From an uncultured Acidobacteriota bacterium (lineage in GTDB: Bacteria; Acidobacteriota; Vicinamibacteria; Vicinamibacterales; SCN-69-37), in contig CAVVUL010000008.1 of assembly GCA_963751445.1 (NCBI GenBank), positions 130,555-194,554 of the forward strand: a stretch of 64,000 bases of DNA. Reading direction: 5' to 3'. How positions within the stretch are numbered: the first letter of the stretch is position 1; the number at the start of each line of letters is the position of its first letter. A program made the position numbers and the translations under genes. Shown here piece after piece: positions 27,098 through 37,215 of the stretch. The notes under the pieces are model-generated. The model was not told the origin of the DNA and ran no database searches. It saw only the letters and a program-made list of their open reading frames with translations.

Positions 27098-29725
27098 ATG
27101 AATCGCTACACCGAAAAGGCGCAGGAAGCCGTCATCGGCGCCCAGCAGCTCGCCGAGCGCGCCGGCAATCCTGAGGTCCTGCCCGAACATGTGCTGCTCG
27201 CGCTGATCGCGCAGCGCGACGGCGTCGTGCCGGCCGTCCTCGGCAAGATGCAGATCGACGCGGATGCGCTCGCGACCTGAGGTCCAGGGCCTCGCTCGAA
27301 CCGGCTGCCGAAGCGTGCACGGCGGCGCGCAGCCGGGCCTGTCCGCCCGCCTGCGGCAGGTCCTGACGCACGGCGGAGACCGAGGCTGAAGCGCTCAAGG
27401 ACGAATTCACCAGCACCGAGCATCTGTTCCTGGCGATCGCGTCGGAGGCCGGCCGCTCCCCCGCCGCCCAGGCCGCTCAAGCAGCGCGGCGTCACGCGCG
27501 ACGCCATCCTGCAGGCGCTCACCGCGGTGCGCGGCTCGCAGCGCGTCACCGATCAGAACCCCGAGGGCAAGTACCAGGCGCTCGAACGCTACGGCCGCGA
27601 CCTCACCGAGATCGCCCGCAAGGGCAAGCTCGATCCGGTCATCGGCCGCGACGACGAGATCCGCCGCGTCATCCAGGTGCTGGCGCGCCGGACGAAGAAC
27701 AATCCGGTGCTCATCGGCGAGCCGGGCGTCGGCAAGACCGCCATCGTGGAAGGCCTCGCCCAGCGCATCGTGCGCGGCGACGTGCCCGAAGGCCTGAAGC
27801 AACAAGCGGATCGTCGCGCTCGACATGGGCGCGCTCGTCGCCGGCGCCAAGTATCGCGGCGAGTTCGAGGAACGGCTGAAGGCCGTCCTCAAGGAAGTGG
27901 CCGACGCCCAGGGCCAGGTCGTGCTGTTCATCGACGAGCTGCACACCGTCGTCGGCGCCGGCGCGGCGGAAGGGTCGATCGACGCGTCCAACCTGCTCAA
28001 GCCGATGCTCGCGCGCGGCGAGCTGCACACGATTGGCGCCACGACGCTGGACGAATACCGCAAGCACATCGAGAAGGATGCCGCGCTCGAACGCCGCTTC
28101 CAGCCGGTGCAGGTCGGCGAGCCGACCGTCGAGGACACGATCAGCATCCTGCGCGGACTGCGCGAGCGCTATGAGATCCACCACGGCGTCAAGTTCAAGG
28201 ACTGCGGCGCTCGTCGCCGCGGCCGTGCTGTCGAACCGCTACATCGCGGACCGGTTCCTGCCCGACAAGGCGATCGATCTGGTCGACGAAGCCGCGTCAC
28301 GGCTGCGCATGGAGATCGACTCGATGCCGGCGGAACTGGACGAGGTCAGCGTCGCATCATGCAGCTCGAGATCGAACGGGAGGCGCTGCGGAAGGAATCC
28401 GACAAGGCGTCGCGCGAGCGTCTCGGCAGGCTCGAGAAGGAACTGGCCGACCTCAAGGAGACGCAGACGCGCCTGAGCGCGCAGTGGCAGCACGAGAAGC
28501 AGGCGATTCAGGACGTGCGCACAGCAGAAGGAAGAACTGGAGCGCATCCGCCAGGAGGCCGACCGCGCGCAGCGGTCCGGCGACTACGCGAAGGCCTCCG
28601 AGCTGCAGTACGGCCGCATCCCGGAGCTCGAACGCCAGATTCTCGCGCACGAGCAAGGCGCCGCCGCGGCCGGCGCCGGGCCGCGCCGCGCATGCTGAAG
28701 GAACAGGTCGACGAGGAGGACATCGCCGAAGTCGTCGCGCGCTGGACGCACATTCCCGTGTCGCAAGCTGATGGAGGGCGAGGTCCAGAAGCTGATTCAC
28801 ATGGAGGAGCGGCTCCACCAGCGTGTGGTCGGACAGGACGACGCGGTCGACCGCCGTCGCCAACGCGATCCGGCGCGCCCGCGCCGGCCTGCAGGATCCG
28901 AACCGCCCGCTCGGCAGCTTCATCTTCCTGGGCCCCACGGGCGTCGGCAAGACCGAACTCGCCCGCGCGCTCGCGGAGTTCCTGTTCGACGACGAGCAGG
29001 CCATGGTGCGGATCGACATGTCGGAGTACCAGGAGAAGCACACCGTGTCCCGGCTGATCGGCGCGCCCCCGGGATACGTCGGCTACGAGGAGGCCGGACA
29101 ATTGACCGAAGCCGTCCGCCGCCGGCCGTACGCCGTCGTGCTGTTCGACGAAATCGAAAAGGCGCATCCGGAAGTGCTGAACGTGATGCTGCAGCTGCTC
29201 GACGACGGCCGCCTGACCGACGGACAGGGCCGGACGGTGGATTTCCGCAACGGCGTCATCATCATGACGTCGAACGTCGGCAGCCACTTCATCGCGGAGC
29301 GGGCGATGCTCGGAGACACGACGCTCGACGAGGACACGCGCCGGCAGTTGCTGGACGCGCTGCGCCAGCACTTCAAGCCGGAGTTCCTGAACCGCATCGA
29401 CGACGTGATCTTCTTCCACGCGCTCGGCCGCGCGGACATCCGGACAGATCATCGATATTCAGCTCGGGCGCTGCTCCGCCGGCTGGAGGATCGGAAGATC
29501 CGCCTCGAGCTGACCGACAAAGCGCGCGACATCCTCATCGAGGAAGGATACGATCCGGTCTATGGCGCCCGGCCGCTCAAGCGGATGATTCAGCGGCGCC
29601 TCCTCGATCCGCTGGCGCTCGGGGTGTTGCAGGGCCAGTTTGGCGAAGGGGACGTGGTGACGGCTGAGGCCAGCAAGGACGGACTGATGTTGACGCGCGC
29701 GGTTGCCGCGCGGAAGCGGGGCACG
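27098..29725 (+). CDS. clpB: ClpB disaggregase (many frame breaks; C-terminal end unresolved)
   Basis: [19 protein letters not shown], both AAA+ modules ([15 protein letters not shown]; [17 protein letters not shown]), the coiled-coil middle domain and [18 protein letters not shown]. No in-frame stop precedes the ftsH ATG in the final frame. Confidence 0.8.
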
Positions 29726-31605
29726 ATGACACCGACCGATCAGGACAAACGCCCGGGCGGCCCTCGCCGCCCCACCATGCCGGGTGGCCGCTCGTTCTCG
29801 CCGCTCTGGCTCGCCGCGGGCCTGCTGCTGCTGATGGTGCTCGCCAACGGCGTCCGCGCCATCGTCGGTCCGGGCGAAGAGCTGCAGGTACTCGCAGTTC
29901 AAGTCGCTGATCGGCGAGGGGCGCATCTCCGATGTCGTCATCACGCCCGATCGGATCGACGGCACGTACCAGAACGCGTCCAAGGCGATCGTGCCGTTCT
30001 ACACCGTCCCGGTGGACGGATCCGAAGCTGCTCGAGCTGCTGGAGCCAAGAACGTCCGTATCAGGCGAGGGTGGAGAGCCGCTGGGTGGCGGAACTGCTG
30101 TCATGGGTCCTGCCGGTGGCGCTGATCGTCGCGCGTGTGGCTGTTTTTCTTCCGGCGCATGAGCGGCACGGAGGGCGGCATCATGTCGTTCGGCCGCAGC
30201 CGCGCGAAGATTTTCGCGGAAGACGACGTCAAGGTGAGTTTCGCGGATGTGGCGGGGGTCGACGAAGCGGCGCAGGAACTGCGCGAGATCGTCGACTTTC
30301 TGAAGACACCCGAAGAAATACACGACGCTGGGCGGCCGCATCCCGAAGGGCGTGCTGCTCGTCGGGCCTCCCGGCACCGGCAAGACGCTGCTGGCGCGGG
30401 CCGTCGCCGGCGAAGCCAAGGTCCCCTTCTTCAGCCTGAGCGGATCGGACTTCGTCGAGATGTTCGTGGGCGTCGGCGCGGCGCGCGTGCGCGATCTCTT
30501 CCGGCAGGCGGAGACCAAGGCGCCGTGCATCGTGTTCATCGACGAACTCGACGCGCTCGGCAAGGTCCGCATGCAGTCGCCGATGGGCGGACACGAGGAG
30601 CGGGAGCAGACGCTCAATCAGTTGCTGTCGGAGATGGACGGGTTCGACTCGAAAAAGGGCGTCATCATCATGGCCGCCACGAACCGGCCCGAGGTGCTCG
30701 ACCCGGCGCTGCTCCGGCCCGGCCGCTTCGATCGGCAGGTGCTGGTGGACAAGCCCGACGTGAAGGGGCGCGAAGCCATTCTTCGCATCCATGCGCGAGC
30801 GGTGAAGCTGGACGGCGACCTGGATCTCGCGGTGATTGCCGCGCGGACGGCGGGCTTGCGGGCGCGGACCTGGCGAATCTCGTGAACGAAGCCGCGCTGC
30901 TGGCCGCCCGGCGCGAGAAGGCGGCGGTGGGCGCCTCGGAATTCGAGGAGGCCATCGACCGGGTCGTGGCCGGCCTCGAGAAGAAGCGCGCGATGAACCC
31001 GCGCGTGCGCCGCATCGTCGCCGTGCACGAATCCGGACACGCGATCGTCGCCACGGTGCTGCCCGGCGGCGACCCGGTGCACAAGGTGTCGATCGTGCAG
31101 CGCGGATTCGGCGCGCTCGGCTACACGATGCAGTTGCCGCTCGAGGATCGCTATCTCCTCACGCGCGGCGAGCTCGAGAACCAGCTGGCGGTGCTGCTGG
31201 CCGGCCGCACGGCCGAGTTGCTCGAGTTCAACGAATTCTCCACCGGCGCGCAGAACGACCTGCTGCGGGCCACCGACATCGCGCGCGCGATGGTGACGGA
31301 ATTCGGCATGAGCCCGGCGATCGGGCCGATCAATCACGAGGGCCGGCGGCGCGGCACGTTCGTCGACACGCCGTTCATGCCTGAGCGCGGCGCGTACGCC
31401 GAGGACACCGCGCGCGTCATCGACGCCGAGGTCAAACGCATCGTGACCGACGCGGAAGACCTCCGCGCGCCGCATCCTCGAATCGCATCACGAGAACTTG
31501 CTGAAGCTGACGGACAAACTGCTCGAGCAGGAAGTCGTCGACGGCGACCAGCTGCGCGAGATGCTCGGCCCGAAGGCGAAGCGAGCCCGCCAGAGCGGCC
31601 AGTAG
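29726..31605 (+). CDS. ftsH: ATP-dependent zinc metalloprotease FtsH (about 7 frame breaks)
   Basis: TM-containing N-terminus, [22 protein letters not shown], the second region of homology, the HEXXH site (VHESGHAIV), and a tail ...[13 protein letters not shown] ending at 31605. Confidence 0.85.
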
Positions 31606-31627
31606 CCGGCGGGCTTCAGCCCGCCGG
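31600..31627 (+). repeat. REP-type hairpin family 1, copy c
   Basis: CAGTAGCCGGCGGGCTTCAGCCCGCCGG. The TAG inside it is the ftsH stop codon. Confidence 0.8.
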
Positions 31628-31768
31628 ACAGGCCAGGACTGTAATCGCAGTGCGCCAGGCAAGACCGTAATCCGCGGCGCTCTGACACGTTGGTGAGAGC
31701 GTTTCCGATTGTGGTGCCCCTGCGCCCTCTCGCCCGGCTTCTATTCAGCCACCGTCGCGCAGTCAGTA

Positions 31769-31784
31769 CGGCATCCGCCTTGCA
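31769..31784 (+). promoter_or_regulatory. Sigma-54-like promoter CGGCAT-N5-TTGCA upstream of the pilin-like operon
   Basis: The GG and GC dinucleotides have exact -24/-12 spacing and TTGCA matches fully. Overall 9 of 11 core positions match. It ends 18 nt upstream of ATG 31803. Confidence 0.5.
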
Positions 31785-31802
31785 GCCTCCAGGTCTATCC
31801 GT

Positions 31803-32405
31803 ATGGCTCTCGACCCAGGCGCGCGCGCCGAATCCGATGCCGGATTCTCGTTGATGGAGTTGCTCCTCGTCTGCGCGTTGACGATTACGGTCAGCGCGAT
31901 AGCGGCGGGATTCTTCCGCAACGCCCGCGCGTCGGTGGCCGGGAACGCCAATATCAGAAGAGTCGAGGCGCTGCTCAAGCTGGCCAGAGAAACGGCGATC
32001 AACGAACGACGCGCGGTGGTCGTGACGTTTGCGGCACCGAATCAAGTCACCCTGACGCGCCTCAACCTGCCGAATGGCGCGACGCTGGTCGGGTCAGGCT
32101 ACCTCGAGAACAACATGAGCTTCATGCTCTTCGCCGGCCTGCCGGATACGCCCGATGCGTTCGGGCGCACGGCTGCGGTCGATTTTGGACCGGCCACCCA
32201 AATCATGTTTACGGCCGACGGCACGCTGACCGACCAGGCCGGGACGTCCGTGAACGGCACGGTGTTTCTGGGCCAGCCCGGCTCACCCATGACGGCGCGC
32301 GCGCTCACGGTCTTCGGGCCGACCGCCACGCTGCGGTTCGTACCGGTGGAACGGTTCGAGTTGGAGCCATTGAGATGGACCAGCGACGCGCGGCCGAACC
32401 GCTGA
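31803..32405 (+). CDS. Prepilin-type minor pilin/pseudopilin (GspH/FimT-like), intact 200 aa
   Basis: Class III signal ...SDAG/FSLMELLLV with Glu at +5, followed by a hydrophobic helix. Confidence 0.75.
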   Translation: MALDPGARAESDAGFSLMELLLVCALTITVSAIAAGFFRNARASVAGNANIRRVEALLKLARETAINERRAVVVTFAAPNQVTLTRLNLPNGATLVGSGYLENNMSFMLFAGLPDTPDAFGRTAAVDFGPATQIMFTADGTLTDQAGTSVNGTVFLGQPGSPMTARALTVFGPTATLRFVPVERFELEPLRWTSDARPNR

Positions 32406-32934
32406 CGACACCCGGTGACGCCGGTTTCGGCCTCGTCGAGGTGCTGGTCGCCATGTTGCTCATCATCGCCGCCACCCTGCCGCTGATGACGGCCACCGCG
32501 CTCTCCGCGCGCCGGCTGATCGCGTCGCAGGACCAGTTCATCGCCAGCCAGCGCGCGGCCGAAGCCGTGGAGAGCGTCTTCAAGGCCCGCGACAATCGCG
32601 TGCTGACCTGGGCGCAGATTCGCAACGTCAACGGCGCGTCCGGCAGCGACGGCGGGGTGTTTCTGACGGCCCCCGCGACGTGCGCGATCCGGGCGCGGAC
32701 GGCCTCGTCAACACGGCTGACGACGGGGCGCTGGCGCAGGTCATCATGCCGGGGCCGGACGGCCTCCTCGGCACGGCGGACGACCAGGCGCAGGCGCTCT
32801 TCGGATTCACCCGCGAGATCGAGATTCGGAGCCTCAGCACGACGCTCCGCCAGATTCGCGTGATTGTGCGGTACCGATCCGCCAGCGGACTGGGTCGATA
32901 CGTCCTCACCACGTATCTGTCGACCTATGCGTAG
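32375..32934 (+). CDS. Prepilin-type minor pilin (PilV/GspI-like), one frame break near 32680
   Basis: GDAG/FGLVEVLVAMLLI. The C-terminal part (ORF 32680-32934) carries two G(A/P)DGL(V/L)(N/G)TADD repeats. Confidence 0.7.
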
Positions 32935-33938
32935 AAATGATTCCGGCTTCACGCTCGGCGAGGCGCTGATCGCCATGGCCCTGACGCTCGTCGTCCTCAC
33001 GGCCGCCATGAACGCCTTCCGGCGGTCGCTGGAGATCGCGGACACGGCCCGGTTGATCGGGGACACGAATCACGCGATGCAGGCCGCCATGAGCATGATG
33101 ACGCGCGACTTCCTGCAGACGGGCCAGGGCATTCCGAAGGGCGGTATCCCGATTCCGTCGGGCACGCCGTCGACTCTGATCGTGCGCCCGGCCCCCGCGG
33201 GCGCGGGCCTCACGCTCGATGCGACCGCGGTGACGCTGCCGGCCGTCTGGACCGGCGGGAGCCTCGGGCCCTCGGTGCTTGGGGTGCGGACCGACATGGT
33301 GTCGCTGCTCTATGCGGACGCGACCCTGCCGCTGAACCAGTTTCCGCTGGCGGCGATGCCGCGAACGGTGTGACGATGACGGTCAACGCCGGCACCCCGC
33401 TCGGCGGCGCCGATGGCCTCAAGGTCGGCGACCTCGTCCTCTTCACCAACGCGCTTGGCAGCGCGATCCAGGCCGTCACGGCGGTCAGTGGCCAGGTGGC
33501 GACGTTCGGGGCGGGCATCCGCTGCGCTTCAACCAGCGCACCGCGCCGCAGGGCACGATCCTGCAGTTGCAGTCGAGCGCGGGCGTCTACCCGCTGACCA
33601 CGGCCATGCGGGTCTGGCTGGTGAGCTACTACATCGACTCGACCACCGACCCCCAGGTGCCGCGCCTGATTCGGCAGGTCAACGCCGGCTCGCGTCTGGC
33701 GATCGCACTCGGCGTGGAGAACCTGCAATTTACCTACGACCTGATCGACGGGATCACGAACCCGAGCAACGTGGAGACCCCGGTGAGCCCGCTGAGTCCG
33801 AATCAAATCCGCAAAGCCAACCTGTTCCTGGCCGCGCGGTCGCTCGACAAGAGCCTGCCCAGCAACCAGTACCTGCGCAACTCGATGGCCAGCAGCGTGG
33901 GCCTGCGAAGCCTGTCGTTCGTCGATCGTTACCGTTGA
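32927..33938 (+). CDS. Prepilin-type minor pilin (PilW/GspJ-like), two frame breaks (about 33365 and 33525)
   Basis: NDSG/FTLGEALIAMALTLVVL. The C-terminal portion is in ORF 33567-33938 (VWLVSYYID...LQFTYDL...ANLFLAARS). It overlaps the previous stop by 8 nt. Confidence 0.7.
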
Positions 33939-36486
33939 TGCCTGAGGGACGAACCATGCCGGATCCACACACACACCGCGACGGCGAAGCGGGCGCGGCA
34001 CTCATCAGCGCCATGATGGTCGTCGTGCTGATGGCCGGCCTCACGGCCGGTATCATCTCGCTCGTGATTGTCGATACCCAGGTGCGGAGCCTGGACGGCA
34101 CGCGCACGCAGGCGTTCTACGTGGCGCACGCGGGGCTCGAGAAACTGACGGCCGACCTGGGCGATCTCTTCTCCGTGAATTTCGCACCGACGGGCGCGCA
34201 AGTCAACGCGCTCACGACGACGCCACCCAGTCTCGGCGCCACCTGGCAGCGGCCGGACGGCACAACGGCTACGGCATACGTTCCCTCCTGACGCGTCCGG
34301 CAACCCGCAAGCGAGCACGATGACGGTCATGTCGGGGCCGTTCCAGGGCTTGATTGGCCTGGCCACCCCGTATCAGGTGAACGTGACGGGCCGTTTGGCG
34401 GACGGATCCGAAGTGAATCTGACGCGCACGCTGCAGACGGTCGCCATCCCGGTGTTCCAGTTCGGCTATTTCTCCGAGAACGACCTCAGCTTCTTCGCCG
34501 GGCCGAACTTCAATTTCGGCGGGCGCGTGCACTCCAACTCCACGCTCTACTTCGCGAGCGGCGACGGGAGCACGCTGACGCTGGCTGACCGTGTGACGGC
34601 CGTCGGCGAAGTCATCCGCACCAACCTCTCGAACGGATGGAACACGTCAACGAACTATCAGGGCACGGTCAACGTGATCCGCGCGCCGGCGTGTATCGCA
34701 GCCTGGCGCGGACCGAGGGCAGCCTCACCGGCACGCTCGGGCAGCGCGACCAACGAGCCGACGTGGACGAACCTGTCCACGGGCACCTACAACCACAACA
34801 TCGTGAACGGCCGCACCGGCGCCAAGCGGCTCGACCTGCCGATTACGGCCTTTGGAGCGTCCCCCATCGACCTGATTCGACGGCCGGTGGCGAACGAGAA
34901 CGCGACCAATCCGCAGGTACTGGCCGAACGGTTCTACTCGATGGCCAGCCTGCGCATCCTGCTCTCCGACTCGGCTGCGGACATCATGGCGCTGCCGGGC
35001 GTGACGGCGACGGCGCCGGTCGAACTGGGCATCAACGAGCCCTACGTCGTGTCGTCGGCGCCGCCGCGCCCGCCGTTCGCGCAGTCGCCCGGCACCGGCA
35101 CGACGGGGGTCAAGACGGCCGACACCACGCCGCTCCTGGGCGGCTACATCAAGATTGAGAAGCAGACCGCGCCTGGCACGTGGGTGGACGTGACGCTCGA
35201 GATCCTGAACCTCGGCATCAACAGTCCCCAACTGCCCAGCGCCAACACGGGGGCCGCGTCCTGCACGGACTTCACGCCCAATGCGATCCTTCGCCTGCAG
35301 CGCCCCTGGGACAACGGCGGCACGTGCTACACCCTCTCGCAGATCACGACGGGCGCGGCGAATGCGACCGTCGCGCGCCTCTACGTGGATAACACGCTCT
35401 ATGACCCGCGCGAGGCGCTCCTGCGCGACTCGGCGCCCTCGTCCATGCAACTCGGCGGCATCATGCACTACATCGAACTGGACGCGCGCAACCTGTCGCG
35501 CTGGTTCCAGGGCACGATCCGCTAGGCAGCTGCCCGATCACCTGCACGGGCGGCGACGCGCTCAACGTCAACGGCTACACCGTGGACTCTCCGACCGCCG
35601 CGGCAACCGCAATGGCTCCAGCCAGGAGACCGGGGAGTTCGGTTTCGAAGATCTCGTGAATCCGCTTTCCGGCAGCGGAACGCCCAATGGCCTCCTCGAT
35701 ACGGGCGAGGACTTCAACGGCAACGGGGCGCTCGACGCCTACGGGGAGACCCCGCGGTTCCCCTACGGCATCAACTGCTGGTCCGGTTGCGCCGAAATCA
35801 TGACCGCGCCGTTTGGCGCCTCCGTCCGCCCGTGGACGACGATCGGCACGACGAATCAGATGGAGATCGCCCGGCGCAACCCGCCGGTCTTCTTCCGCCG
35901 CGCCTTGAAGCTCACCAATGGCGCCCTCGGCAACCTGGTCGCCCCGGGCCTCACGATCGCTTCGGAGAATCCCGTCTACATCCAGGGTAACTGGAACGCC
36001 AACGGCTCGGGGTTCGGCAACCCGCACGTCGCGACGTCGGTCCTGGCGGACGCGGTGACGCTGCTGTCGAACAACTGGAATGACCGCAACAGCTTCGTCA
36101 ATCCGCACAGCCATGACAGCAGCAGCGCCCGGAACGCCACGACGACCTGGTACCGGCTGGCGGTGATCGCCGGCAAGGGCCTGTCGTTTCCGCAGCCGAG
36201 CGGCACGCCGCAGGACTTCGGCACCGACGGCGGCGCCCACAACTTCCTCCGCTACATCGAGGACTGGGGCGGTGACACATTGAATTTCCGCGGCTCGATC
36301 GTCAGCTTCTTCGTGAGCCGGCAGGCCACGGGCACCTACAAGTGCTGCACGACGGTGTACTCGCCGCCGACCCGCGGGTACAACTTCGACACCGATTTCC
36401 TGACACCCAGCCTGTTGCCACCACGCACGCCGATGTTCCGCGACCTGAACGCGACCGGGTTCGCGCAGATCATCCGCCCGCAGTAA
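33938..36486 (+). CDS. Giant PilX-N-terminal-domain pilus protein (about 849 aa; at least 3 frame breaks)
   Basis: N-terminus GEAGAALISAMMVVVLMAGL (PilX/GspK-like, no Glu+5). The rest is an Asn/Gly/Thr-rich predicted beta-rich body in ORFs 34320-35525 and 35281-36486. EF-hand-like loop DFNGNGALDAYGE. TGATG overlap with the upstream gene. Confidence 0.6.
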
Positions 36487-36522
36487 CGCGCCACTGACCT
36501 GTTCGTGTCAGAATGTCGACCC

Positions 36523-37215
36523 ATGAAGAAGGTCTATCCGGACGCCACAGCCGCCGTCGAAGGCGTGATGAGCAATATGACGCTCATCCTCGGCGGCTTC
36601 GGTCTGTGCGGCATCCCTGAGAACTGCATCGACGCGCTGGCGGAATTGAACGTCACCGGGTTGACGTGCGTGTCCAACAACGCCGGCGTGGACGGCTTTG
36701 GCATCGGCATCCTGCTGGAGAAGCGGATGGTCAAAGCCATGGTCTCCAGCTACGTCGGCGAGAACGCCCTGTTCGAGAAGCTGCTGCTGAGCGGCGAACT
36801 GCAGGTGGAGCTGACCCCGCAGGGCACGCTGGCCGAACGGCTGCGCGCGGGCGGCGCCGGCATCCCGGGCTTCTACACCCCGACCGGCGTGGGCACCGCC
36901 ATCGCCGAGGGCAAGGAGGTCAAGGTGTTCGACGGCCGCGAGTACATCCTCGAGCGCGGCATCGTCGGCGACTTCGCGTTCGTCAAGGCGTGGAAGGGCG
37001 ACGCCTACGGCAACCTGATCTACCGGAAGACCGCGAGGAACTTCAATCCGATGGTGGCGACGGCCGGGAAGATCACCGTGGCCGAGGTCGAGCATCTGGT
37101 GCCGGTCGGCGAACTCGAGCCCGATCAGGTCATGACGCCCGGGATCTACGTCCAGCGCATCTTCCAGGGCCGCAACTACCAGAAGCGCATCGAAAACCGC
37201 ACGGTCTCGAAGTAG
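36523..37215 (+). CDS. scoA: 3-oxoacid CoA-transferase subunit A
   Basis: MKKVYPDATAAVEGV..LILGGFGLCGIPE and full-length family resemblance. Intact. Confidence 0.85.
   Translation: MKKVYPDATAAVEGVMSNMTLILGGFGLCGIPENCIDALAELNVTGLTCVSNNAGVDGFGIGILLEKRMVKAMVSSYVGENALFEKLLLSGELQVELTPQGTLAERLRAGGAGIPGFYTPTGVGTAIAEGKEVKVFDGREYILERGIVGDFAFVKAWKGDAYGNLIYRKTARNFNPMVATAGKITVAEVEHLVPVGELEPDQVMTPGIYVQRIFQGRNYQKRIENRTVSK

Follow-up and report, generated by a model that had tools for sequence, protein, structure and literature searches.

A four-gene minor-pilin operon with a giant PilX/GspK-type cap in an uncultured Acidobacteriota bacterium: most likely the starter-and-tip complex of a type IV pilus

The analysed window, a stretch of 64,000 nucleotides from the genome of an uncultured Acidobacteriota bacterium, contains a four-gene operon at positions 31803-36486, flanked by ftsH and scoAB, which encodes three Glu5-bearing prepilin-type proteins followed by a giant whose PilX/GspK-type N-terminus lacks Glu5. 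This locus raises the question of which filament these proteins serve and what the giant contributes to it. We suggest that the four-gene set most likely starts a type IV pilus and forms its tip, with a pilin-like protein of about 850 residues as the cap.

Four genes and their promoter

The genes overlap by 31, 8 and 1 nt, and these overlaps, the ftsH and scoAB flanks and three prepilin sites with Glu+5 (G/FSLMEL, G/FGLVEV and G/FTLGEA), all described in the original prediction, were reproduced from the sequence. Gene 1 (31803-32405, plus strand as are all features below) is intact and encodes a FimU/GspH-type minor pilin of 200 aa with the leader MALDPGARAESDAG/FSLMEL and Glu5. It scores above the cut-off of Pfam GspH (PF12019; 28.6 bits against 21 bits), its best NCBIfam matches are ComGD and GspH, and its orthologue in the relative G022 shares 50% identity. 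The gene 1 product is likely the adaptor to the major pilin. Gene 2 (32375-32934; G/FGLVEV) encodes a PilV/GspI-type minor pilin of about 185 aa, and the PilV profile TIGR02523 matches both the window fragment (E 2e-4) and an intact orthologue (E 3e-7) under its cut-off. The two G(A/P)DGLxxTADD repeats noticed earlier are present as the acidic repeats GADGLVNTADD (32692-32724) and GPDGLLGTADD (32752-32784), and they are conserved, with at least one strict copy of GxDGLxNTADD in 65 of 66 gene 2 orthologues; all 66 fit once the pattern is relaxed slightly. Gene 3 (32927-33938; G/FTLGEA) encodes a PilW/GspJ-type minor pilin of about 335 aa with weak matches to PilW (PF16074) and HpsC. The AlphaFold2 model of a gene 3 orthologue (pLDDT 89) finds its best fold match in the Thermus pilin TTHA1219 (5G23/5G24; probability 0.97, E 5e-4), which is cited as a PilW-class reference structure (PMC13759059).

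Gene 4 (33938-36486) encodes the giant PilX/GspK-type cap pilin of about 850 aa, as assigned from profiles (PilX_N, E 5.5e-4; GspK, E 2.8e-5) and orthologues, and its hydrophobic N-terminus, GAALISAMMVVVLMAGL, lacks Glu5 as predicted. Since relatives encode the orthologue as one unbroken ORF of 819-930 aa (862 aa in the closest relative with an intact gene), the region is one gene of about 850 codons and not several, which bears out the earlier guess. The best family matches of genes 1-4 give the order H-I-J-K, with most of the matches for genes 2-4 lying under curated cut-offs. Based on gene order together with family and fold matches, the products are most likely FimU/GspH, PilV, PilW and a PilX cap, in agreement with the original reading as a minor-pilin operon that ends in a single giant cap.

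A sigma-54-type -24/-12 element, CGGCAT-N5-TTGCA (CGGCATCCGCCTTGCA, 31769-31784; GG-N10-GC), ends 18 nt before the gene 1 ATG (31803), just as had been claimed. The 64-kb window has one copy of the strict pattern GGCAY-N5-TTGCW, where 0.32 are expected by chance, so that this single copy is weak evidence alone. Relatives carry TGGCAC-N5-TTGC-like elements at the equivalent position; a motif score of at least 9/11 was reached upstream of gene 1 at 30 of 55 loci versus 23 of 1620 random windows (1.4%), and this conservation far exceeds chance. The predicted transcription start lies about 8 nt before the ATG, which would yield a near-leaderless mRNA, and the stretch 31400-36800 showed no sigma-70-like promoter. 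Elsewhere, the window's genome carries rpoN (C8:92930-93403) and about 20 enhancer-binding proteins; a clear PilR orthologue was not found. None of these proteins could be assigned to the cassette promoter, and no upstream activator site was seen.

Conservation, neighbourhood and partner machinery

Of 41 relatives, 21 have the giant as an intact ORF. Conservation of the cassette extends through Vicinamibacterales, and the giant family counts 334 species representatives and 4,531 clusters at 50% identity. The three-prepilin architecture stands upstream of the giant at nearly all of the approximately 70 loci with enough upstream sequence. The description of the operon as an orphan holds for the window's genome and for most relatives, where it has no conserved neighbours, but not for several relatives of the same order in which it adjoins pilD. 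In one of them (G026) it lies within the pilus cluster itself, in the order pilB-pilT-pilC-pilS-pilR-pilA-...-pilD-g1-g2-g3-giant. In another (G034), pilD is the near downstream neighbour, encoded on the opposite strand, which also carries pilC-pilT-pilB 7-11 kb past the giant; in three further species pilD is directly upstream. This synteny with pilD and the pilB cluster ties the cassette to the type IVa pilus (T4aP). The phylogenetic profile singles out no particular machine: 18 of the 21 giant-bearing genomes have a T4aP PilB orthologue, as do 15 of the 20 that lack the giant.

As anticipated, pilus components and prepilin peptidases are encoded elsewhere in the window's genome. Contig C10 carries genes for PilB, PilT, PilD and a PilA-type pilin, further PilA-type genes lie on C10 and C8, and secretins on C3, C8 and C11. 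Two other minor-pilin sets were found, one on C10 after pilD and one on C11, indicating that the giant cassette is not a lone replacement but one of at least three such sets. PilY1 was not detected in this genome by a search that had no working control.

Taken together, we consider it probable that the operon is sigma-54-dependent and translationally coupled, and that it encodes the core minor-pilin complex of a type IVa pilus encoded elsewhere, serving as a conditional alternative tip. Motor, platform, secretin, peptidase and major pilin would be supplied from other loci, and the prepilin peptidase would cleave the products of genes 1-3 at G/F. The gene 2 (PilV/GspI-like) and gene 3 (PilW/GspJ-like) products would form a tip trimer with gene 4, the PilX/GspK-like cap, and since gene 4 lacks Glu5, the filament would end there, while gene 1 (FimU/GspH-like) would bridge between trimer and major pilin. 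The complex may start filament assembly, remain at the tip and expose the gene 4 head of about 750 residues, which by analogy is probably a calcium-stabilised adhesin or ligand-binding module in place of PilY1. Because the genome has at least three different minor-pilin sets, we read the cassette as an alternative tip that would be turned on conditionally via a sigma-54 activator. The tip location of the cassette, the adhesin role and calcium binding of the giant, and the identity of the activator are what we infer here.

The cassette could instead be the H-I-J-K pseudopilus tip of a universally conserved MshE-type T2SS-like cluster, acting in polysaccharide or protein secretion and not in a retractile pilus. 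This pilus-like cluster (G000 C8:56-66 kb) comprises T2SSF, an MshEN-T2SSE ATPase, PilM/N and a secretin with TPR and cohesin domains, and its only two pseudopilins are GspG-like, leaving it without minor pseudopilins of its own; it shares a contig with the cassette, and the cyanobacterial relatives HpsA-D were initially linked to polysaccharide secretion (PMC13759059). However, the cluster occurs in 39 of 41 relatives compared with 21 of 41 for the cassette, the two adjoin at no locus, and cassette synteny, where present, is with pilD and pilB-T-C-A of T4aP, which makes this role unlikely.

The giant's head and the broken reading frames

The head of the giant is a distant relative of cyanobacterial HpsA/PilX_EPS. 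The HpsA profile NF038301 matches gene 4 over three stretches (E 7e-11 and 2e-11; 42 bits against a 400-bit cut-off), and within the window's genome it matches the giant only, not the PilX-like protein of the C11 set. First, the conserved motif VAIPVFQFG (34440-34466), which lies within the invariant block TVAIPVFQFGxFSENDLxFFAGPxFxFGGRVHSN, aligns with profile positions 286-332. Second, a conserved C-terminal module, GTDGGAHNFLRYIEDW...LNFRGSI...YKCC (36220-36348), aligns with positions 1335-1403; FLRYIEDW (36244-36267) and YKCC (36337-36348) account for the Trp/Phe/Cys-containing C-terminus noted before. The body, described as Asn/Gly/Thr-rich, is only mildly so (T 10.4%, A 10.3%, G 9.8%, N 6.8%).

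A candidate calcium loop, DFNGNGALD(AYGE) (DFNGNGALDAYGE, 35710-35748), follows the pattern DxNxNGxxD and sits in the conserved acidic block ETGEYGFED...GEDFNGNGxLDxYG, in which E604, D605, N607, Y615 and G616 are invariant among 50 orthologues. It stands where a near-canonical EF-hand had been proposed, but it is a nine-residue loop of Dx[DN]x[DN]G type that falls short of a full EF-hand, and conservation does not extend to the Glu that follows. The Dx[DN]xDG class with an acidic residue two positions on is known in PilY1 and integrins (PMC3123361). The AlphaFold2 model of the giant (pLDDT 76, pTM 0.75) shows an N-terminal helix (13-76) followed by beta-sheet. The predicted head has no fold match among the solved structures of the PDB or the viral predictions of BFVD, the sequence has no PDB match, and the suggested beta-solenoid or propeller could not be shown. 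An adhesin role is therefore proposed by analogy. Replacement of PilX plus PilY1 by the giant accords with a later proposal for cyanobacterial PilX proteins, in which Synechocystis PilX caps the pilus in place of PilY1 (PMC13759059); the tip-adhesin part of the idea remains conjectural.

Invariant residues are numerous in the head and include His, Asp, Glu, Arg and Cys (e.g. H195, H714, D778, H782, E789 and C817-C818); together with a fold unlike known pilins, they would also suit a pilin-anchored enzyme or surface-released cargo, for example glycan-active or lytic, which genes 1-3 only deliver. We regard this as quite improbable, as no catalytic domain of the giant was found in Pfam or NCBIfam, PDB sequence and fold searches point to no enzyme, and its HpsA-like modules have no assigned function.

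Gene 1 is unbroken, while at least seven indels interrupt the open frame of genes 2, 3 and 4 in this assembly. Comparison with orthologues, whose intact forms in relatives measure about 180, about 340 and 820-930 aa, places the frame changes at ~32665-32674 in gene 2 (in a C5 run), at ~33349-33358 and 33519-33549 in gene 3, and at ~34267-34278, ~34686-34750 (a compensating pair) and ~35555-35590 in gene 4. Since the genome looks indel-rich, with 61% completeness on 14 contigs and with the neighbouring clpB and ftsH likewise split, the breaks are most likely assembly errors; other few-contig relatives show similarly low completeness and fragmented matches. That the cassette is here a decaying pseudogene array with real frameshifts and no functional product, as its seven frame-breaking indels within 4.7 kb and its accessory nature (missing from about half of the relatives) might suggest, is highly improbable given the same kind of break in these essential neighbours, the incomplete assembly, the indel in a homopolymer, the lack of in-frame stops in the pieces apart from frame changes, and 50-69% identity to orthologues over their whole length.

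Comparison with known minor-pilin systems

The cassette resembles Synechocystis pilA9-pilA12 and Nostoc punctiforme hpsA-D, in which FimT/GspH-, PilV- and PilW-like proteins are combined with a PilX cap that has no Glu5 and measures about 800 aa; the Synechocystis order is FimT-PilV_EPS-PilW-PilX_EPS, and PilX_EPS is HpsA-like and 799 aa long (PMC13759059). Like this EPS-type set, it has a giant that matches the HpsA profile via N-proximal and C-terminal modules, several alternative minor-pilin sets per genome and, as far as the uncontrolled search goes, an undetected PilY1. Unlike it, the giant scores far under the HpsA cut-off, a beta-solenoid could not be shown in its head, the cassette has no link to hps glycosyltransferase genes, its promoter is of sigma-54 type whereas CRP-family regulators are reported for the cyanobacterial operons, and the host belongs to the Acidobacteriota.

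As in Thermus thermophilus pilA1-pilA2-pilA3-comZ (PMC6561018), a large pilin-like tip protein closes the minor-pilin operon, and the gene 3 model best matches the Thermus pilin TTHA1219. However, neither sequence nor Foldseek comparison matched the giant to ComZ or another PDB entry, and DNA binding or competence is without support for the cassette.

The H-I-J-K order is shared with Pseudomonas aeruginosa fimU-pilVWXY1Y2E, the Myxococcus xanthus minor-pilin/PilY1 clusters and T2SS GspH-I-J-K, as are Glu5 in three subunits but not in the cap and, by analogy, the priming and tip role proposed here. Multiple minor-pilin sets in one genome are also known in Myxococcus, and the candidate Dx[DN]x[DN]G-type loop of the giant recalls the calcium site of PilY1. 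In contrast to the Pseudomonas and Myxococcus clusters, the cassette has no separate PilY1 gene; its cap is approximately four to five times the length of proteobacterial PilX or GspK, and the operon appears to be sigma-54-driven and nearly leaderless.

A stand-alone prepilin-type cassette with a giant is also seen in the Verru_Chthon cassette proteins A-D (TIGR02596, TIGR02598, TIGR02599 and TIGR02600). Matches to protein D (5e-7), protein B (0.009) and, in the C11 set, protein C were weak and all under cut-off, and protein A (TIGR02600) gave none. Since cyanobacteria and Thermus have comparable sets, the cassette of soil Acidobacteria represents a new branch of a system type already known.

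Gene structure of the minor-pilin cassette

An ORF listing together with three-frame translation revealed four co-directional, overlapping genes at 31803-36486 on the forward strand, which are flanked by ftsH upstream and by scoA/scoB downstream. Gene 1 (31803-32405, 200 aa) is intact and has the N-terminus MALDPGARAESDAG/FSLMEL, where the slash marks the cleavage site. Gene 2 starts at 32375 with the leader …PGDAG/FGLVEV and gene 3 at 32927 with the leader MRRNDSG/FTLGEA, and all three genes encode Glu5. Gene 4, which we call the giant, starts at 33938 with the N-terminus …GEAGAALISAMMVVVLMAGL; this is a hydrophobic N-terminus of the pilin type (GAALISAMMVVVLMAGL) with Ser at +5 and no Glu at that position. 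Successive genes overlap by 31, 8 and 1 nt. These overlaps and leaders, as well as the promoter element, repeats, loop and C-terminal block described in the original prediction, were all found in the places it had assigned to them. Neither a sigma-70-like promoter nor a convincing terminator was detected within or at the ends of the unit. The stop codon of the giant is separated from the start of scoA by only ~18-33 nt (36486-36520), without a terminator-like hairpin, and transcription from the sigma-54 operon could possibly read through into scoAB in this genome; the giant-scoA adjacency is not kept in relatives.

Genes 2-4 of the window have no single open frame. When we searched the window by tblastn with the intact orthologues of G022, a relative of the same order, frame changes were located at ~32665-32674 in gene 2, at ~33349-33358 and 33519-33549 in gene 3, and at ~34267-34278 and 35555-35590 in gene 4. 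Gene 4 also contains a compensating pair at ~34686-34750, where the family-conserved peptide …FRxLAxxEGSLxGTLG… is read in another frame. These indels are very probably errors of long-read assembly. First, one of the frame-change sites is a C5 run. Second, the genome is assembled in 14 contigs, yet its estimated completeness is only 61%, and other few-contig assemblies of the same family show similarly low completeness and fragmented matches with internal stops. Third, like the genes of the cassette, clpB and ftsH (27825-31670) are each spread across two or three frames. Finally, the pieces of genes 2-4 contain no in-frame stops besides the frame changes and retain 50-69% identity to their orthologues. 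Programmed frameshifting was rejected, given a total of seven indels, two of which compensate each other, and the equal breakage of the neighbouring housekeeping genes. The indel rate in the clpB-ftsH stretch is apparently about one per 0.5-1 kb, so that gene calls in the window need frame correction. That gene 4 is one gene, as originally predicted, is supported by the relatives: with its middle fragment as query, intact single ORFs of ~785-1,185 codons were found in 20 of 40 genomes of the same order (45-69% identity), and the closest intact orthologue has 862 aa.

Gene 1 matched Pfam GspH (PF12019) with 28.6 bits, over the gathering score. The best match of gene 2 was PilV (TIGR02523; 3e-7 for the intact orthologue), under the cut-off. 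Gene 2 also encodes a conserved acidic repeat region, and we do not claim these repeats as calcium sites because they do not fit the Dx[DN]xDG motif. Gene 3 gave weak matches to PilW and HpsC. Its AlphaFold2 model, based on a 61-sequence alignment, reached pLDDT 89 and pTM 0.83, and the sole significant matches in the PDB were to the Thermus thermophilus pilin TTHA1219 (5G23/5G24; probability 0.97, E 5e-4), whose structure is the reference for the PilW class (PMC13759059). The N-terminus of the giant matched PilX_N (5.5e-4) and GspK (2.8e-5), both under the cut-offs. Based on these family matches, the gene 3 fold and the N-terminal matches of gene 4, the order of the cassette is FimU/GspH, PilV/GspI, PilW/GspJ and PilX/GspK. 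Known priming complexes have this same order, and their subunit without Glu5 caps the filament.

Conservation of the cassette and its sigma-54-type promoter

A search of 5.8 billion proteins yielded more than 4,400 relatives of the giant, and when 50%-identity cluster representatives were searched with a profile, 4,531 matched at E ≤ 1e-3, 1,117 of them at E ≤ 1e-30. The named relatives came from Acidobacteriota or Vicinamibacterales MAGs and were called 'hypothetical protein' or 'pilus assembly PilX N-terminal domain-containing protein'. Among GTDB species representatives, 334 stretches encode a relative of the giant, and the best 80 of these 334 are nearly all labelled Acidobacteriota. In the GTDB-representative loci, three prepilin motifs are positioned upstream of the giant at distances of ~2.1-2.4, 1.5-1.8 and 1.0-1.2 kb, and prepilin G/F motifs with Glu5 occur at conserved offsets in 54-66 orthologous loci, where the median mature lengths of the three prepilins are 177, 170 and 334 aa. 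Since the same three motifs recur at set distances from the giant, the four-gene cassette is a conserved unit, and the relatives share the architecture that had been described for the window.

The element CGGCATCCGCCTTGCA (cGGCAt-N5-TTGCA, 31769-31784, forward strand) is located 18 nt before the ATG of gene 1. Its GG and GC are exactly ten bases apart, and it is near the TGGCAC-N5-TTGCW consensus. The strict motif has one match in the 64 kb, where 0.32 are expected, and at least one match appeared in 27 of 100 shuffles, indicating that the element alone is not significant. In an alignment of six relatives, TGGCAC/T-N5-TTGC stands amid otherwise unconserved upstream sequence, and a scan with the strict pattern matched the expected position in at least 14 of the closer loci. 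When we scored the best GG-N10-GC site within 200 nt before the cleavage-site codon of gene 1, at least 9 of 11 consensus positions were matched in 30 of 55 loci, compared with 23 of 1,620 windows of 203 nt drawn at random from these loci (1.4%). The sigma-54-type promoter proposed in the original prediction is thus at the predicted place and kept in relatives.

In close relatives, 50-58 nt separate the end of the motif from the Gly codon, and a start codon follows 13-18 nt after TTGC. Transcription from sigma-54 promoters usually starts ~11-12 nt after the GC element. Judging from these distances, the leader of the cassette mRNA would be only ~2-8 nt long and would not contain a Shine-Dalgarno sequence. 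The rpoN gene is on the same contig as the cassette, and the genome encodes ~20 enhancer-binding proteins, none of which is a clear PilR orthologue: with PilR of the relative G026 as query, several equally distant matches were obtained (42-48% identity). No enhancer-binding protein gene was found within 5 kb of the cassette in ~80 loci. In G026, pilS, pilR and pilA form a unit, with an NtrC-type sigma-54 activator, inside the T4aP cluster (locus L112, 5378-9286, on G026:C27). In four of the more distant species, a conserved NtrB-like histidine kinase gene lies directly downstream of the giant (L074, 7841-9166; L051, L079 and L111), and the analysed flanks of these loci showed neither a response regulator nor an enhancer-binding protein.

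The giant PilX/GspK-type pilin and its head

In the AlphaFold2 model of a giant orthologue (50 sequences, pLDDT 76, pTM 0.75), most of residues 310-770 are predicted with confidence. The model shows a 64-residue N-terminal helix (residues 13-76) followed by beta-sheet, and its secondary structure is mixed alpha/beta with much coil. A beta-solenoid head has been described for cyanobacterial PilX and Thermus ComZ. When we compared the model with the PDB and BFVD using Foldseek, nothing was returned at E < 0.05 (best 0.11 in the PDB and 0.076 in BFVD), neither ComZ nor a beta-helix protein was among the results, and a profile search of PDB sequences was empty. These searches give no support to a beta-solenoid or a propeller as the fold of the head, the part beyond the pilin N-terminus.

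The only family signal past the pilin part was NCBIfam HpsA (NF038301), hormogonium polysaccharide protein A, with a profile of 1,503 positions. The match (E 7e-11 and 2e-11) is confined to three short stretches; among them are the invariant TVAIPVFQFG…GGRVHSN block (profile 286-332) and, in the C-terminal part of the giant, the GTDGGAHNFLRYIE.W block (profile 1335-1403). The score was 42.3 bits against a 400-bit cut-off for full-length membership, and the relation between the giant and HpsA is one of distant modular homology, not family membership.

The head contains a strongly conserved acidic region, YFSDRRGNR…ETGEYGFED…GEDFNGNGxLDxYG in the orthologue alignment, in which E604, D605, N607, Y615 and G616 are invariant. 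Three-frame translation of the window showed both the DFNGNGALDAYGE loop and the FLRYIEDW…YKCC C-terminal block. The loop, which had been read as a near-canonical EF-hand, matches the pattern of the nine-residue Dx[DN]x[DN]G…D class, which Rigden et al. have reviewed and to which the PilY1 site (residue 851) also belongs (PMC3123361; PMC3248442). What looked like a full EF-hand is a shorter calcium-loop motif, and the Glu behind that impression is not conserved. Calcium binding by this candidate loop is plausible. PF05567, the C-terminal beta-propeller of PilY1, has no match in the giant, and the two proteins share only a Dx[DN]x[DN]G-type loop.

Partner machine and comparison with known systems

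The window's genome encodes at least seven T2SSE-type ATPases, including a PilB/PilT pair on contig C10, where a T4aP cluster comprises pilB, pilT, a PilA-type pilin gene and pilD. The genome also contains further PilA-type genes, three secretin loci (C3, C8 and C11) and two A24 peptidases, and on C11 an ATPase, a secretin and an A24 peptidase are together in a Tad-like group. The platform protein PilC was not identified in this genome. Apart from PilC, core type IV pilus genes are thus present elsewhere in the genome, as the original prediction requires. A second candidate is a compact cluster at C8:56000-66000. Its counterpart in the well-assembled G022 (L110, G022:C25:8000-27000) encodes T2SSF, an MshEN-domain T2SSE ATPase, PilM, a PilN-like protein, a secretin with TPR and cohesin domains, and two pseudopilins; the MshEN N-domain is of the c-di-GMP-binding type. 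This MshE-type cluster occurs in 39 of 41 genomes of the order, with an ATPase core that is 83-96% identical, and has no minor pseudopilins of its own. Phylogenetic profiling could not discriminate between the partner machines, since 39 of 41 genomes encode the MshE-type ATPase and 33 of 41 the T4aP PilB orthologue; the latter was found in 18 of 21 genomes with the giant versus 15 of 20 without it, which is no significant association with the cassette.

Synteny points to the type IVa pilus. In G026 the gene order is pilB-pilT-pilC-pilS-pilR-pilA-…-pilD-g1-g2-g3-giant. In G034, another relative, the cassette is closely followed by pilD and a histidine kinase gene on the opposite strand, and 7-11 kb past the giant come pilC-pilT-pilB; in three further species pilD is immediately upstream of the cassette. 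Most loci, including those of the window's family, have no conserved neighbour: any flanking family is common to at most 7 of ~80 loci. Based on these gene arrangements, the cassette is an autonomous module which, where linked, is linked to type IVa pilus genes. The term 'orphan' thus holds for the missing neighbours in most loci, and 'autonomous module' describes better a cassette that is one of several sets and T4aP-linked in some relatives. We infer that the four proteins form a filament-priming tip complex, supported by the synteny with pilD and pilB-T-C-A in relatives. As a separate observation, in three relatives (L011, 3270-6997, of G022; L012; L013) the cassette is beside a lasso-peptide-like gene set, comprising an Asn_synthase-type cyclase, PqqD, Transglut_core3 and a P-loop protein without Pfam match, together with an outer-membrane beta-barrel gene; this set is absent from the window.

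Two further minor-pilin sets are present in the window's genome. In the slot after pilD (C10:107003-109258), a compact set encodes PilV-like, PilW-like and small PilX-like (~190 aa) proteins. The last gene of the third set (C11:234238-238228) encodes a PilX-like protein of 493 aa with a high content of Gly, Ser, Thr and Asn; this protein has no HpsA match and is found in only 5 of 41 relatives. A tentative reading, which we consider possible but doubtful, is that in Vicinamibacterales interchangeable minor-pilin cassettes, of which the window's genome has at least three, would fit one T4aP machine with different tips. The cassette of the window would be put to use only upon a sigma-54 signal, with a near-leaderless transcript. 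Its head of ~750 residues would have a calcium-stabilised fold not seen before and would bind a specific environmental ligand, for which exopolysaccharide of the cell itself, polymers from minerals or plants, or other cells are conceivable, so that adhesin and cap would be fused in one pilin. Overall, the original interpretation of a minor-pilin operon with a giant cap is mostly sound, except for the orphan status and the EF-hand, and with a head fold that has no solved match.

Acidobacteria are among the most abundant soil bacteria, and to our knowledge their surface appendages are almost unstudied. The cassette gives a tangible starting point for studying the attachment of these organisms to soil surfaces or polymers, and it adds a further case for one pilus machine being specialised by alternative priming complexes. 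The giant family exceeds 4,500 sequence clusters, and every annotation in it reads hypothetical or 'PilX N-terminal domain' protein.

When we compared the cassette with known systems, no match to the proteins A-D of the Verru_Chthon cassette (TIGR02596-TIGR02600) reached its cut-off: protein D scored 30 bits (cut-off 70), B scored 16 bits (cut-off 51) and A had no match. In the HpsA/PilX_EPS design, the pilin fold is interrupted by a large beta-solenoid head (PMC13759059). Unlike that system, the cassette shows no link to hps polysaccharide genes: among the flanking families shared between the ~80 loci, none is a glycosyltransferase. Cyanobacteria have two distinct core minor-pilin sets that work on one shared machine and prime different filaments; for their large PilX, a replacement of PilY1 has been proposed (PMC13759059), and the original prediction suggested that the giant may take over from PilX plus PilY1. 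Our genome search with PF05567 gave no match, but the control genomes were equally silent, so that it is uninformative on the absence of PilY1. Multiple minor-pilin/PilY1 clusters are also described for Myxococcus, according to a passage citing them in PMC8833165, and the window's genome resembles both cyanobacteria and Myxococcus in having several minor-pilin sets. The giant family shows that the giant-cap minor-pilin design of Thermus and cyanobacteria is widespread in Vicinamibacterales, under a sigma-54 control of its own and with a head domain that lacks a solved structural relative. Distinctive in this branch are the confidently predicted head, which has no structural relative in the PDB or BFVD, the conserved acidic repeats of the PilV-like protein, and the conserved, near-leaderless sigma-54 control.
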